Below are positions 62 through 3,016 of a stretch of DNA of 21,665 nt, piece by piece. The stretch is taken from contig JANVYQ010000016.1 of the NCBI GenBank assembly GCA_030059675.1, positions 1 through 21,665 on the forward strand, written 5' to 3'. Below the pieces are notes generated by a model that worked only from the letters and a program-made list of their open reading frames with translations, was not told the DNA's origin and did not search any database. Source of the stretch: Candidatus Pelearchaeum maunauluense. Its GTDB lineage: Archaea; Thermoproteota; Nitrososphaeria_A; Caldarchaeales; Caldarchaeaceae. Positions within the stretch are counted from its first letter, which is position 1. The number at the start of each line of letters is the position of its first letter. The position numbers were made by a program, and so were the translations under genes.

Positions 62-1102
62 TTAATAATCCTTTTTCTTCTTAATGTTTCTTCCTATTGC
101 TACTCTTAGTTTCTGACATACGCGCCTCCAATCATTGCTGCTTCTTATCACATCAACGTAGCTTTGGATTGTTCTTATGGAAAGTTCAATCAGATATCGT
201 TTCCTGCTTATTGGTGTTCCCACCACCTCTAAGAATCTCTGGTAATCCTCGGGATGAATTAATATCTCGTATACATCTTTCTTTGTATGCATCCACATCT
301 TCTTTTGCGAATTCCAACGTCTTTCACCTTCCTTGGCAATCAACGATGATGGGCTAGCCCGTATTTTTAATTCTTTCAGTAAAGACTCAATGTATGTCAA
401 AAGCTGTTTATTCGAGTTGACAAAGCTTGGAAATAATGCTATTCCATCTCCGTCGAAGAATCCTTTGAGGAGTACGAGTTTGACTTGTTTGTCTGCATTT
501 ATGTATGTTTTCCATTGGTTATATTTTAGTATGTGATAGAGTTCTGCTGTTTGGGCTCTGACTTGTAGTCTGCCATCGGTGAGCTGGTTTATCGCGGGTT
601 TGAGGCCTATCTTGGCTAAGGCTTGTGCGAATGTCTGGGCGTATTCTGTGTCTTTGACGCGTAGTTCTATGTCTGCCTGTTCGGAGTGTTTGGAGAATCT
701 TCCGTCAGATAATATTGTTCCGACGACATAGCCGAACCAGTATCCGTCTTTCTTAACTTGAATGACCTTCCCATTCGGCTTGTGTTTCGCTCTTACCGAG
801 AGGCTTATGATGGATTTGCCTAGCCACTCGTTGAACTCGGCTAGAATAGACCTTTGAATCTCCTTGTAGCTTTTTCCTTCTTTACGTAGCCCCAGAGTTC
901 TTTCGTATATTTTCTGCCTGAGCAGTAGTGGTCTAATGCTTCTTGTTTTTACATTTTTCAGCGTATATATCTGTCTTAGCCGGTAGTCCGACATCATTCT
1001 GGGAATATCTGAGCCGTATCGATACTGTGGTCTCGGCTTAGTCTCTCTCCTATATGATAGTGTCTTTCCTCTTAGCTTTGGTATATTTCTCTGAGTTTTC
1101 AT
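62..1102 (-). CDS. LAGLIDADG homing-endonuclease family protein (two motifs) with N-terminal basic region and HTH-like domain, ~346 aa
   Basis: Motifs YVVGTILSDG and LLKGFFDGDG. HTH-like segment YERTLGLRKEGKSYKEIQRSILAEFNEWLGKSIIS. Start moved from 1294 to the ATG at 1102 (MKTQ), which has GAGGA just upstream; the 1103-1294 extension overlaps RNA hairpins. Confidence 0.85.
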   Translation of the reverse strand: MKTQRNIPKLRGKTLSYRRETKPRPQYRYGSDIPRMMSDYRLRQIYTLKNVKTRSIRPLLLRQKIYERTLGLRKEGKSYKEIQRSILAEFNEWLGKSIISLSVRAKHKPNGKVIQVKKDGYWFGYVVGTILSDGRFSKHSEQADIELRVKDTEYAQTFAQALAKIGLKPAINQLTDGRLQVRAQTAELYHILKYNQWKTYINADKQVKLVLLKGFFDGDGIALFPSFVNSNKQLLTYIESLLKELKIRASPSSLIAKEGERRWNSQKKMWMHTKKDVYEILIHPEDYQRFLEVVGTPISRKRYLIELSIRTIQSYVDVIRSSNDWRRVCQKLRVAIGRNIKKKKDY

Positions 1103-1750
1103 TTTATCCTCTTCTTCGTTGCCCCTTAGGCCTCGACCTCGCAGGAGCGAAGGCTCCCAAAAATTGCAAGGCCTACAAGCCCTTCTTTTACCGCCATCCG
1201 GGGCTTGATGGCGGTCCCGCGTGGACAGGGCCTTCATACTCCCCCATGACAGAATGTTGGGGGAGGCGCCTGCTAGGCCGCGAAGCCCCGCCATGCGGAA
1301 CCACCATCATGGTCTGTTACGTCAGCTATATCCAAAGGCATTAGGCGGAATTATCTGAAAATCGACTAGCCGTCAACAGGGTGTCAATAGCGATCTTTTT
1401 CATCACTTGTCCGGGTTCTCCTCTCTGCGTCTTCTCCGGGAATCTCCTTATGCTCGCCTCGTTCACCACGTGCTCCAGGCATTATTAGCCCTCCACCGCA
1501 CGCTCCGGGAGCAAGCATAAGAGCTATCCGTTCACCGAAGACGCAGGAGGATATCAGCCCTCATATAGGAGATGCGTATGAGATATTGGCTCCAGATTAG
1601 CGCAGCCATTATGGGAGCCTTTCACCACCAGACTCCGGGAAAATCCCTTCACCGCCAAGCTCCGGGCACCCTAAGGCTCACCAACACCAACACTCTCACA
1701 CGGAGAGCACCCATCGGGCAGGCCTCCGAGAGGCTCAGGCTAAAACTCCC
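1103..1750 (-). ncRNA. Large structured RNA (leader of the endonuclease ORF) with multiple kink-turns; family not recognised
   Basis: Long nested stems (1419-1434/1537-1551, 1444-1457/1511-1523, 1578-1590/1686-1699) are interrupted by repeated GGU-GAA / (C)GGA asymmetric loops. G-U pairs and the K-turn motifs work on the minus strand. No convincing protein-coding frame. Confidence 0.7.
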
Positions 1751-3016
1751 AACAGGGCCGCCTCCCTCCTTGTATACGTCGCAGTAGGGGCTGGCATAAC
1801 CAGCTACCTCACATGGTCTTATCTAGGCCTTCCAGACTTTGCTCTAGAGCGCGCTGTAACTGTGATGGTAATAGCATGTCCGCATGCTCTTGGACTAGCC
1901 ATACCGCTGGTAGTAGCAATATCAACTTCTATGACTGCTAAGCGTGGAATATTGATAAGGGATAGACGGGCATTCGAGTCGGCTAAAGATGTTAATGCCG
2001 TGGTCTTTGATAAGACGGGAACGCTGACCGAGGGGAAATTCGGGGTAACGTCTGTTGTTTCCTACATACCTGAAGAGAAACTGCTCATGCTAACCGCTAG
2101 TGTGGAGAAGAATTCAGAACACATAATAGCACGCGCCATCGTAGAATATGCTGCTAGCAAGGGAATAAGACCAACAAGCCTAGCTGAGTTTAAAGCAATA
2201 CCTGGAAAGGGAGTATACGCCCGCGTGGATGGGCGCGAAGTATATGTTGGTGGACCAGCTCTTCTTGAAGAGCTTAATATAGAGATTAATGATGAAGAGG
2301 TGCTTAAACTCCAGAGTCAAGGAAAAACTGTAGTCTTCTCCATAGTGGATGGGAAGCTGGCAGGCGCTATAGCGCTGTCTGACATAATACGCAGCGAGTC
2401 GTATGAAGCCGTTAAGAAGCTCAGGGAGATGGGTGTTAGGACGTACATACTGACTGGAGATGCTGAGGAGGTTGCCAGATGGGCTGCTAAGGAGCTTGGG
2501 GTAGATGAGTATTTTGCGCAGGTTCTACCGCATGAGAAGGCTGAGAAGGTACAGCTCTTAAAGAAGCAGGGATTCACAGTGGCGATGGTTGGAGATGGAA
2601 TAAATGACGCTCCAGCTCTGGTTAACGCTGACGTTGGAATAGCGATAGGCGCAGGCACGGATGTGGCTATAGAGAGCGCCGATATAATACTCGTCAAGAA
2701 CGACCCTAGAGACGTGCCCGTTGTTATAGAGCTTTCGCGGAAAACCTATTCCAAGATGTATCAAAACCTCTCGTGGGCTGGCGGATATAATATATTCGCC
2801 ATACCCCCAGCAGCAGGAATACTGGCCACATACGGCCTTGTTCTAAGCCCAGCGATAGGCGCCCTCTTCATGTCTCTCAGCACGGTAATAGTCGCGATTA
2901 ACAGCCAGACATTAAGGAAGTATATGCCAAAAGCGGAGGAAATCACGATAACGACGGAGGAAGAGAAGAAAGTTGAGGAAGTTCCAGCCCATGCGCATCA
3001 TCACTATAACCACTAA
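1751..3016 (+). pseudogene. copB: 5'-truncated CopB-type (P1B-3) copper-translocating P-type ATPase
   Basis: CPH, DKTGT, GDGINDAP, YN and MSLST motifs, plus a His-rich tail. The frame reads as CopB upstream of the called start (NRAASLLVYVAVGAGITSYLTWSYLGLPDFALERAVT, from 1751). The actuator domain (TGES), N-terminal helices and metal-binding domain are absent. Confidence 0.85.

Follow-up and report, generated by a model that had tools for sequence, protein, structure and literature searches.

A large conserved RNA stands before a nuclease ORF in several known systems: the HEARO or omega RNA of IscB lies directly 5' of the ORF in a mobile element, and the lariat-capping ribozyme is found 5' of the I-DirI homing-endonuclease mRNA. 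Kink-turns (K-turns), for their part, usually occur singly, and the only double K-turn module that we know to have been described is that in P12 of RNase P. In the published account of this euryarchaeal module, the NC helix of KT2 doubles as the C helix of KT3, with the two K-turns head to tail and overlapping, and the whole is thought to bind two molecules of L7Ae and to fold the helix back; in 2017 it was called unprecedented, and its authors urged that further modules like it be looked for (Lai et al., 2017; PMC5499556). In archaeal 5' UTRs, the binding of L7Ae to K-turns is described as lowering translation (Daume et al., 2017; PMC5539422), and according to the rule put forward for such regulatory K-turns, they should not fold with ions alone and are without G at 3n and C:G at -1b:-1n (Huang et al., 2019; PMC6298567). 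Finally, an 'a-b' insertion has been reported from Candidatus Caldiarchaeum subterraneum, in which a non-coding 'a' of about 550 bp, considered a putative recombination region, lies directly 5' of 'b', an ORF of about 270 aa considered a possible recombinase (Sugahara et al., 2012; PMC3293823). As described there, the insertion is multi-copy, with 'a' conserved in its nucleotides and 'b' not; five of the six 'a' regions are coupled to 'b', and one copy sits at a tRNA-Thr(GGU). The description of the insertion presents neither an RNA structure nor K-turns, and the word 'LAGLIDADG' does not occur in the text of the paper.

How does the locus presented here compare? The window, by which we mean the whole stretch of 21,665 nucleotides analysed from the hot-spring archaeon Candidatus Pelearchaeum maunauluense, carries near its start two K-turn-bearing hairpin arms that the first-pass annotation had read as an L7Ae-coated, sharply bent scaffold. 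The K-turn arms are real, but they do not make up a free-standing RNA; they form the middle of a folded minus-strand RNA of about 620 nt (window ~1750-1130) with a LAGLIDADG endonuclease gene behind it, and this K-turn-rich RNA very probably represents what is conserved and non-coding in a mobile homing-endonuclease cassette. A blastn search with window 1120-1760 (minus strand) matches a second copy in the same genome (G000:C9) over query positions 11-617 at 72% identity, and one in 'Archaeon HR02' (G032:C28) over positions 8-535 at 74% identity. These are the only two relatives found: blastn against 61 related genomes and all 76 genomes of the order returned nothing past the three copies, and a covariance model of arm 2 (R1) found matches in two of the 76 genomes, at the known three loci only. 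An invariant 19-mer, searched in genome contigs, hit HR02 and three bacterial records, which we take as chance matches, and it had no match in viral contigs or metagenome contigs.

The cassette is inserted antisense within a P-type ATPase gene, of which a congener (G001) has an intact version. Homology to the uninterrupted gene stops at the nearly invariant 5' segment of the RNA, which places the insertion junction just upstream, at ~1750-1755; residues 277-654 of the congener's ATPase are found by tblastn at window 1796-2929 with 96.6% identity, and its N-terminal part is found nowhere in the assembly. The second copy in the genome is intergenic, flanked by genes for a superoxide dismutase and an aspartyl protease with at most ~1.6 kb of non-coding-plus-cassette DNA between them; an empty counterpart of this site was not found in the congener, whose contig ends at the 3' end of the superoxide dismutase gene, nor in two further genomes (G004, G002), where the neighbourhoods differ. 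The HR02 copy is followed on the same strand, 405 nt downstream, by a tRNA-Thr(GGU), which recalls the tRNA-Thr(GGU) copy of the 'a-b' insertion; upstream of it, no 5' fragment of tRNA-Thr was found of the kind present in the published clone (Sugahara et al., 2012; PMC3293823). The layout as a whole, with a conserved non-coding stretch 5' of an ORF of ~270-350 aa, in several copies and absent from the corresponding site of related genomes, matches that of the 'a-b' insertion, a likeness drawn from the published description.

The genes behind the RNA differ from copy to copy. In the window, the putative LAGLIDADG nuclease has 346 aa from the AUG at 1102 or 391 aa from the AUG at 1237, with the mechanical ORF reaching 1294, and the LAGLIDADG_3 domain scores 33.1 and 30.4 bits against a Pfam cut-off of 22.5. 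It is only 29% identical to the LAGLIDADG protein of HR02, while the RNAs are 72-75% identical. The second copy in the genome has two small HNH-like ORFs in place of the LAGLIDADG gene (PHROG HNH endonuclease, E 1.2e-4 and 3.9e-5), an assignment with modest PHROGs support whose Pfam E of 0.042 falls short of the cut-off, and a related leader in another genome (G006) is followed by an unclassified ORF of 281 aa. The cassette is thus mobile, and nuclease genes are exchanged behind one type of RNA. Leaders of other subfamilies in the order have only two short blocks and the overall layout in common with this RNA; they are without K-turn arrays and bear different repeated loop modules of 13-17 nt where the K-turns stand here. 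Judged by title and abstract, the literature found on LAGLIDADG proteins of Aigarchaeota concerns rRNA introns; a search for literature joining kink-turn, LAGLIDADG and archaea found none.

Table 1. Features of the cassette and its surroundings in the window. Kt, predicted kink-turn; A2 and A3, three-copy alignments of arm 2 and arm 1.
Feature	Positions	Strand	Basis or remark
C-rich 3' module, then T-runs, directly after the stop codon	1..56	-	contig ends here
LAGLIDADG homing-endonuclease gene (putative)	62..1102	-	Pfam LAGLIDADG_3, E 4.7e-7 to 6.8e-8
Whole conserved structured RNA ('a'-type leader), 5' of the endonuclease gene	1130..1752	-	blastn and three-way alignments
Hairpin CCUCCCCC..GGGGGAG, 3' strand Shine-Dalgarno-like	1239..1266	-	sequence; also in relatives
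Candidate K-loop, C-box-like, CCCGGA-caagu-GAUGA	1400..1414	-	conserved in 3/3 copies
Arm 2, long hairpin with Kt3, Kt4, Kt5	1419..1551	-	alignment A2
Kt4, bulged GGU-GAA, partner GGA 1504-1506	1462..1467	-	alignment A2, core letters
Kt5, bulged GGU-GGA, partner GGA 1474-1476	1492..1497	-	core letters
Kt3, bulged GGU-GAA, partner GGA 1435-1437	1531..1536	-	core identical in 3/3 copies
Arm 1, long hairpin with Kt0, Kt6 remnant, Kt2, Kt1	1557..1719	-	alignment A3
Kt0, bulged UAU-GA-G, partner C-G-A 1714-1716, base of arm 1	1560..1565	-	flanking helices paired in 3/3 copies
Kt6 remnant, non-bulged GGA	1591..1593	-	bulged strand lost in 8-nt deletion between 1686 and 1685
Kt2, bulged GGU-GAA, partner GGA 1661-1663	1621..1626	-	sequence, alignment A3
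Kt1, bulged GGU-GAA, partner GGA 1634-1636	1648..1653	-	sequence, alignment A3
Nearly invariant 5' segment GGGAGUUUUAGCCUGAGCCUC..GGAGGCC, small hairpin GCCUC/GAGGC	1721..1750	-	columns invariant in 3/3 copies
P-type ATPase gene, 3' part, interrupted by the cassette	1749..3016	+	uninterrupted ORF in congener (G001) 681 aa

In each arm, the helices zig-zag by way of predicted Kt-7-type K-turns on alternating strands and end in an apical double unit, whose two K-turns have a C helix of 6-7 bp in common (columns 70-76/107-113 of A3, 56-61/89-94 of A2); further K-turns along the arm have NC helices of ~18-20 bp in common. The two long hairpins themselves were rightly recognized at first pass, for their helices are kept with compensatory changes across the three copies. 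Over the 58 pairs of arm 1, 96.3% of 161 cells are paired, compared to 37-42% with a slid partner, and over the 45 pairs of arm 2, 93.3% of 134 cells, compared to 45-55%. Six pairs have changed on both sides in arm 1, a number reached by 8 of 500 shuffles, and five in arm 2, reached by 9 of 500, a control that is not a probability; the covariation rests on these 11 double changes because only three copies exist. The strand is likewise settled as the minus strand: 30 of the 161 cells in arm 1 and 18 of the 134 in arm 2 are G-U, and in a plus-strand reading only 125 and 113 cells, respectively, would pair. For the 567-nt intergenic stretch as a whole, neither strand has a remarkable minimum free energy (z-scores of -1.45 and -1.55).

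The motifs are more frequent than chance predicts. Within the 281 nt first flagged, GGTGAA occurs four times on the minus strand and not once on the plus strand, the genome rate predicting 0.07; GGTGRA occurs five times, a count reached by none of 2000 dinucleotide shuffles (mean 0.30, maximum 3); YGGAG occurs seven times, with six reached in 3 of 2000 shuffles; and CCGGAG occurs four times against 0.013 expected. Conservation is highest in the columns of the K-turn cores, with 63 of 72 invariant as compared to 143 of 206 paired and 35 of 64 other columns. A strict double-unit pattern, run over the 76 genomes, gave five matches in the genome of the window against one in the control; in the other 75 genomes, 18 matches against 26 in the control are chance level, and the best-looking of them (in G004) lies inside an apparent coding sequence. 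Other GGTGAA clusters of the genome (C8 at ~22.6 kb, C9 at ~150 kb) also look like coding sequence on inspection and are without CCGGAG partners. Our general K-turn finder, which returned 46 candidates in 701 nt, and a K-loop counter, by which leaders could not be told from shuffles, proved too permissive and were abandoned.

Which of the motifs, then, are likely to form K-turns? All five pairs of bulged and non-bulged strands first listed as definite are present on the minus strand and stand opposite each other, as seen both in the sequence and in the covarying helices, and the motifs follow the proposed Kt-7 pattern, with U as the last of three bulged nucleotides, then tandem G-A/A-G, and A-G at 3b-3n. 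Judged from their letters, Kt1 to Kt4 (GGU-GA), and also Kt0 (UAU-GA), should have the 3-nt bulge and the tandem G-A/A-G pairs, and the C and NC helices of a Kt-7 K-turn are found in both arms by the paired cells and the 11 double changes. Every site has G at 3n, and G at -1n with C or U at -1b. The L7Ae-bound Kt-7 K-turn has the same bulge, tandem sheared pairs, 3b-3n, -1n and helices; what sets the predicted sites here apart is their number, seven to eight in ~330 nt, and a C-C or C-U mismatch at 4b-4n of Kt3 and Kt4. Kt1 and Kt2 have a 7-bp C helix in common, and in the HR02 copy the apical unit of Kt1 is missing and Kt2 is a K-loop. The C helix of Kt3 comprises 15 pairs, 95.6% paired, and the helices flanking Kt0 are columns 1-3/181-183 and 7-10/171-174 of A3. 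The GGUGGA variant noted at first pass does occur, at Kt5, and turns out to be a substitution at 2b in the window, G in place of A, the relatives having GGTGAA and AGTGAA; Kt5 is probably defective in the window copy, because 2b is A in both relatives, while in its NC stem (68-71/82-85) all cells are paired (100%) and one pair is compensatory. The possible sixth K-turn proposed at 1677-1682/1590-1595 does not exist in the window: its bulged strand GGUGAA, kept in both relatives, fell to the loss of GGUGAAGG (alignment columns 35-42, a gap in the window only). This Kt6 is canonical (GGUGAA/GGA) only in the second copy of the genome, since the HR02 copy has GAA on the non-bulged strand, with A at 2n. 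Downstream of the arms, what we read as a K-loop at 1414-1400, a motif reading of our own, has two closing pairs only (83% paired); this K-loop and Kt0 are additions to the sites noted at first pass. In total, the intact paralog has eight K-turn or K-loop sites, and in the window copy five are good, one is mutated and one is deleted; seven to eight such sites in ~330 nt of one RNA make this the densest run of K-turn motifs known to us.

Duplication had been suspected for the apical double units, and the whole arms look like duplicates too: in the intact copy, arm 1 aligns to arm 2 with a score of 67 against 27.7 +/- 7.7 in 500 shuffles (maximum 54). The suggested parallel to the tandem K-turns of RNase P P12 is looser. 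In both cases two K-turns lie a few bp apart in one helix; however, in P12 as published, the second K-turn takes the NC helix of the first for its own C helix (Lai et al., 2017; PMC5499556), whereas here K-turns on opposite strands, head to head, have a 6-7 bp C helix in common, and the common helix is the C helix of both. Box C/D sRNAs also have two K-type motifs per unit, and the K-loop at 1414-1400 contains a C-box-like GUGAUGA, but the arms carry GGUGAA/GGA in place of a RUGAUGA/CUGA pair, their strand order is reversed, their spacers are base-paired as C helices rather than free guides, and no Rfam C/D family matches. At gathering thresholds, Rfam finds only a tRNA elsewhere in the window; with E up to 10, one chance-level match in window 1000-1950; and with E up to 1, only a tRNA in four related loci. 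There is no sequence or Rfam match to HEARO/omega RNA or to the lariat-capping ribozyme, and neither a guide nor catalysis is in evidence.

The window copy shows signs of wear. Besides the substitution at 2b of Kt5 and the deletion of Kt6, nine of the 15 unpaired cells of the two arms fall in its row, and its 5' module is replaced by ATPase sequence. It is probably a decaying insertion, 5'-truncated and partly degenerate, a reading based on the missing 5' module and on its having more broken pairs than the relatives.

Between the arms and the gene lie conserved signals for translation. After the Shine-Dalgarno-like hairpin comes an AUG (1235-1237) in the reading frame of the endonuclease ORF; hairpin and AUG recur in both relatives, as they do in leaders from other subfamilies (L037, L053, L057, L054), among which the frame was checked in L037 only. 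The endonuclease's own Shine-Dalgarno, AAGAGGAUAAAAUG, lies at 1115-1100. The K-turns are 130-600 nt away from the start codon that goes with this Shine-Dalgarno, so that direct masking as in the l7ae leader is unavailable, and a K-turn burying the Shine-Dalgarno (1120-1115/1157-1155) was rejected as not conserved in the relatives. In four related copies, two from this subfamily and two from others, the equivalents of the window's C-rich 3' module, at the far end of the cassette, complement a G-rich module at the 5' end. The duplexes in complete copies are predicted at -35 to -43 kcal/mol, as raw energies, and their paired letters vary between subfamilies, with GGUCGGG/CCCGACC in this subfamily, GGCUGGC/GCCAGCC in L037 and GGUUGG/CCAACC in L034. 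A T-run lies at or within ~25 nt past the C-rich strand in three of the four folded copies (C9, G032, L037), as also in the window, and is absent in L034 from the stretch examined.

What can be proposed, from these features, for the function of the RNA? As a whole, they are best explained by a self-folding, L7Ae-decorated leader that would package the message of the nuclease, a reading to which we would give an even chance. The host genome encodes an L7Ae-family protein (102.5 bits), and L7Ae binding to the predicted K-turns is likely. With G at 3n and C:G or U:G at -1b:-1n, the K-turns are, by sequence, of the kind that needs only metal ions to fold (Huang et al., 2019; PMC6298567), for which reason we read them as architecture and not as a switch. 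In our scenario, RNA and ORF would be transcribed as one message; the K-turns would bend the arms back onto the core of the RNA and let the host's L7Ae dock at up to eight sites, so that the endonuclease mRNA would carry at its 5' end a compact particle resistant to heat and nucleases. The G-rich 5' end of complete copies would pair with the C-rich segment just past the stop codon and thereby close the transcript, and the Shine-Dalgarno-like GGGGGAG would be buried in the hairpin adjoining the conserved AUG. Particle, end pairing and hairpin together might stabilise the message and limit translation of the nuclease, a function that we put forward tentatively, at slightly under an even chance.

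A role of the RNA in its own right would, however, fit at least as well as a leader with an RNA that is more conserved than the genes behind it and accepts unrelated ones. It is conceivable, if rather unlikely, that a stand-alone trans-acting RNA or RNP is the real selfish or functional unit, with interchangeable nuclease genes lodged before the 3' strand of its terminal helix, much as homing-endonuclease genes lodge in peripheral intron loops. Self-folding K-turns and variable arms on a conserved core, as large functional RNAs typically have, would suit such a unit, as would the pairing of the 5' and 3' modules across the ORF, the unclassified ORF behind the related leader, and the contrast between well-conserved RNAs and nuclease genes that are unrelated (LAGLIDADG versus HNH-like) or highly diverged; the published count of six 'a' regions with five coupled also speaks for it (Sugahara et al., 2012; PMC3293823). 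Yet a nuclease gene stands behind all three copies and no ORF-less copy was found in the subfamily, the conserved Shine-Dalgarno-like hairpin and AUG at the 3' end of the RNA are features of translation, and neither a trans target nor a catalytic motif was found. Carried further, and unlikely in our estimate, the RNA would represent a new class of self-folding, L7Ae-studded archaeal RNP and would itself be what selection acts on, a mobile chassis recruiting interchangeable nuclease genes between its core and 3' terminal strand. The arms would then be swappable arrays of modules for docking protein or RNA, with K-turns in this subfamily and other conserved loops of 13-17 nt in sister subfamilies, and the RNA would be active in its own right, be it in homing, repair or host manipulation. 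The precedent of L7Ae lowering translation from 5'-UTR K-turns, in archaea and in reporters (Daume et al., 2017; PMC5539422; Huang et al., 2019; PMC6298567), argues instead for a translational switch that senses L7Ae, unfolded without it, and folded, with the nuclease repressed, at high levels of free L7Ae, as in the autoregulatory l7ae leader. In both, a leader 5' of an ORF contains K-turns whose likely ligand is L7Ae; but the l7ae leader is described with one, non-self-folding K-turn adjoining the Shine-Dalgarno, whereas here many K-turns, all of self-folding sequence against the rule for regulatory ones, lie far from the start codons, and we hold a switch to be quite improbable.

Two further readings are very unlikely. 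Varied homing-endonuclease families behind one RNA, a core with variable arms, and the pairing of the ends recall mobile introns, and the RNA might accordingly be a ribozyme or intron (group I, group II or archaeal bulge-helix-bulge) carrying a homing-endonuclease gene. However, no Rfam intron family matches the window or the four related loci with E up to 1-10, the window copy lies antisense to the gene that it interrupts and the second copy of the genome is intergenic, the 5'-3' duplexes are without the motif of two 3-nt bulges separated by 4 bp, and only ~25 nt and a T-run follow the ORF, too little for domains V-VI of group II, so that we consider this the least probable reading. Marginally less remote is conservation at the level of DNA, as a recombination or homing arm or as hairpin repeats, in which the resemblance to K-turns would be incidental or due to a binder other than L7Ae. 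The designation of 'a' as a putative recombination region (Sugahara et al., 2012; PMC3293823) would agree with this, and so would the other repeated loop modules of sister-subfamily leaders, which imply that the repeated unit need not be an L7Ae site. Against it stand the 48 G-U cells, which the opposite strand or a DNA cruciform would turn into A-C mismatches, the 11 compensatory pairs, unpaired K-turn cores more conserved than the helices, and a motif found four to five times where 0.07-0.3 are expected.

With up to eight sites in ~330 nt, regularly alternating, and a different kind of double unit built on a common C helix, the RNA lends itself, as found in nature, to the study of how K-turns and L7Ae molecules, several at a time, give a large RNA or an RNA-protein particle its shape. 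By the likeness in layout, our analysis also interprets for the first time, in structural terms, the non-coding half of the 'a-b' insertions, which break genes and tRNA genes in Caldiarchaeum-like archaea, and links these insertions to homing endonucleases. If the RNA controls or protects the message of the nuclease, as the leader reading proposes, it would represent a new way for a selfish gene to make use of a universal RNA-binding protein of its host.

What kind of RNA carries the K-turn array at 1419-1699? The region is free of any credible gene and lies between two mechanical ORFs, 62-1294 (-) and 1862-3016 (+). Read on the minus strand, it holds four GGUGAA and one GGUGGA, each facing a (C/U)GGAG, and all five definite motif pairs of the first-pass annotation fall exactly where it had placed them; the array is confirmed here and extended by two further elements (see the table). 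Within these 281 nt, GGTGAA occurs four times on the minus strand and never on the plus strand, with 0.07 predicted from the genome-wide rate, and the count of five GGTGRA was reached by none of 2000 dinucleotide shuffles (mean 0.30, maximum 3). Two further GGTGAA clusters in the genome were rejected, being apparently coding sequence by inspection and lacking a CCGGAG partner. Across the 1.79 Mb of the genome, both strands counted, CCGGAG is found only 161 times, whereas length alone would predict roughly 870; it is strongly avoided, perhaps as restriction avoidance, and yet is used four times in the region, against 0.013 expected. Folding energy gave no support for structure in a 567-nt stretch (z-score -1.45 on the minus and -1.55 on the plus strand).

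Support for the fold comes instead from comparison. By blastn, the RNA has only two relatives, a second, intact copy in the same genome (contig C9; 72-73% identity) and one in genome G032, on the contig of the public record 'Archaeon HR02' (74-75%). A covariance model of arm 2, run on 76 genomes of the order, hit two of them, at the three loci already known; an invariant 19-mer found no additional copies in genome, viral and metagenome collections, and Rfam held no matching family. In alignments of the three sequences, arm 1 comprises 58 pairs, with 96.3% of 161 cells paired, compared with 37-42% when the partner is slid, and arm 2 comprises 45 pairs, with 93.3% of 134 cells paired, compared with 45-55%. 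Pairs changed on both sides number six in arm 1 and five in arm 2, values reached in 8 and 9 of 500 shuffles, respectively. Both arms are well supported despite the small number of sequences, and the paired helices with their compensatory changes place the motif strands opposite each other, as the annotation had assumed. Its minus-strand reading also stands: there are 48 G-U cells and the plus strand would pair only 125/161 cells in arm 1 and 113/134 in arm 2, and the RNA is therefore read from the minus strand. Conservation is highest in the unpaired K-turn cores, as expected of a protein- or fold-determining motif: 63 of 72 core columns are invariant, compared with 143 of 206 paired columns and 35 of 64 others.

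Positions of features in the window and, for the last row, in a related cassette locus
Feature	Position	Strand	Remarks
P-type (HAD-domain) ATPase gene	1749-3016	(+)	cut by cassette
Arm 1	1557-1719	(-)	base to tip: NC - Kt0 - C helix (4+19 bp) - Kt6 - NC helix (~18 bp) - Kt2 - C helix (7 bp) - Kt1 - NC stem-loop
Arm 2	1419-1551	(-)	base to tip: C helix (15 bp) - Kt3 - NC helix (~18 bp) - Kt4 - C helix (6 bp) - Kt5 - NC stem-loop
Kt0	1565-1560 / 1716-1714	(-)	added here, absent from first-pass annotation
K-loop, C-box-like	1414-1400	(-)	added here, absent from first-pass annotation
SD-like hairpin	1266-1239	(-)	then AUG 1237-1235, in frame with LAGLIDADG ORF
G-rich 5' and C-rich 3' modules of L004	~1900-1990 and ~440-480

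Along each arm, C and NC helices take turns and the bulges switch strand. In the RNase P P12 double unit, as described in the sections of PMC5499556 on this element, a single helix serves as NC helix to the first K-turn and as C helix to the second, whereas the two K-turns of a unit here have a C helix in common. The proposed duplication of the apical units is supported in the intact paralog, where aligning the arms to each other scores 67, compared with 27.7 +/- 7.7 in shuffles; the idea therefore covers whole arms. What did not hold is the possible sixth site, which forms no K-turn in the window, owing to an 8-nt deletion of GGUGAAGG there. Both relatives retain the bulged strand of Kt6, GGUGAA; the site is canonical in the C9 copy only, the non-bulged strand of the G032 copy reading GAA, with A at 2n. 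At Kt5, the window has GGUGGA against GGUGAA and AGUGAA in the relatives, differing at position 2b, and arm 1 of the G032 copy lacks the apical unit, Kt2 closing as a K-loop. The window copy appears to be decaying: its 5' module is absent, one K-turn carries the 2b substitution and another is deleted, and of the 15 unpaired cells in the two arms it accounts for 9. Its 3' module (1-56) is present and its LAGLIDADG reading frame still open.

The conserved RNA extends from about 1750 to about 1130 (-). In the window it is followed by a LAGLIDADG gene (Pfam LAGLIDADG_3), in C9 by two small ORFs with modest matches to an HNH endonuclease (PHROG, E 1.2e-4 and 3.9e-5; against Pfam, the HNH score was below the cut-off), and in G032 by a LAGLIDADG protein 29% identical to that of the window. 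Thus, one RNA type precedes exchangeable nuclease genes. In genome G006 (L051, 493-1338 (-)), a related leader precedes a 281-aa ORF that fits neither a Pfam nor a PHROG family, which adds a third kind of gene to those found after RNA of this type. Upstream of the window RNA lies the antisense strand of the ATPase gene. In the congener G001 this gene is an uninterrupted 681-aa ORF, its homology to the window stopping at ~1750, so that the cassette is inserted DNA that broke a gene; since it lies antisense to that gene, an intron of the ATPase gene is ruled out. The N-terminal 276 codons (residues 1-276 of the G001 orthologue) have no match in the 94% complete assembly, and the gene is therefore probably dead in this genome. 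The contig stops 61 nt past the LAGLIDADG stop codon, placing the far junction outside it. A congener contig (L063, G001:C105:1-636) stops at the 3' end of a superoxide dismutase gene, the site of the C9 cassette in G000, the window's own genome.

The cassette belongs to a wider family. Of the 76 genomes, 44 have LAGLIDADG relatives, and in some the family is strongly expanded (at most 32 scored matches, in G038, then 22 in G039, 20 in G040 and 15 in G024); since many of the matches lie at contig ends, the cassettes seem to break assemblies. Several complete copies have long leaders rich in G and C; 650-790 nt ahead of the ORF stands a 5' module, made up of two hairpins and a G-rich strand, and a complementary C-rich strand lies at or just past the stop codon. 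Folded for L004 and L018 of this subfamily and for L037 and L034 of others, all complete cassettes, the duplexes are predicted at -35 to -43 kcal/mol (raw energies); from one subfamily to another, the paired letters covary. In three of the four folded copies (C9, G032, L037), and also in the window, a T-run is seen at or up to ~25 nt after the C-rich strand; none was seen in the examined stretch of L034. An upstream C-rich copy can pair locally with the G-rich strand too, hinting at alternative pairings or at direct repeats on the flanks. Apart from common features, this RNA aligns with the leaders of other subfamilies in two short blocks only, and outside G000 the strict double K-turn pattern occurs at chance level. 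Instead of K-turns, the arms of those leaders carry repeated 13-17-nt loop modules; in the 750 nt that follow the 5' module, the leaders L053, L057, L060, L054, L055, L056 and L059 each have their own, four to seven times (for example GGCCGUGCUACGCAUGAC, UUGCCCGUG(A/U)GCG, UUGCGCAUGUGC and GGUGCCAUGCGCC), on hairpins with variable stems at the place of the K-turns.

What, then, could the RNA do? The interpretation in the first-pass annotation is supported in part. We propose that the K-turns would kink the arms so that these fold back on the core, with the sites predicted to be filled by host L7Ae, whose gene is present in the genome. The transcript would span the G-rich module to the T-run, so that its ends would pair, and the particle may stabilise the nuclease message and limit nuclease translation. 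The main rival is an RNA with a role of its own, the nuclease genes being passengers: the RNA is more conserved than these genes and tolerates unrelated ones behind it. However, a leader is favoured by the absence of ORF-less copies in this subfamily and by the SD-like hairpin, CCUCCCC..GGGGAGG, which is common to several subfamilies and followed within a few bases by an AUG; in the one other-subfamily leader checked (L037), this AUG shares the frame of the endonuclease ORF. At window 1235-1266 (-), in L004 and in L006, the conserved AUG behind the hairpin opens a short frame starting MKAL. In the window this frame continues into the LAGLIDADG ORF, but it ends after 44 codons in C9 and 26 in G032; differences between copies are mostly non-synonymous, which makes its conservation look RNA-level. 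An array acting as an L7Ae-sensing switch is less likely, because the K-turn sequences belong to the self-folding class. According to the portions of PMC6298567 on K-turn folding, 3n = G with -1b:-1n = C:G allows folding in metal ions alone, and the regulatory K-turns of l7ae leaders have neither; all sites here have 3n = G, -1n = G and C or U at -1b, and from these letters they look like constitutive architecture.

We found no link in the literature between homing endonucleases and L7Ae or K-turns. A precedent for the leader-and-gene cassette is the 1,868-bp insertion at tRNA-Thr(GGU) of Caldiarchaeum subterraneum, which consists of a 545-bp non-coding region 'a', present in six copies, and an 813-bp ORF 'b', present in seven, and which its authors considered a possible transposable element carrying a recombinase (Sugahara et al., 2012; PMC3293823). 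Our cassette has the same layout, and the G032 copy has a tRNA-Thr(GGU) 405 nt downstream; the passages of that paper on the insertion mention neither RNA structure, K-turns nor LAGLIDADG. The element adds a new, K-turn-rich form to a kind of archaeal mobile cassette RNA that is still poorly understood.
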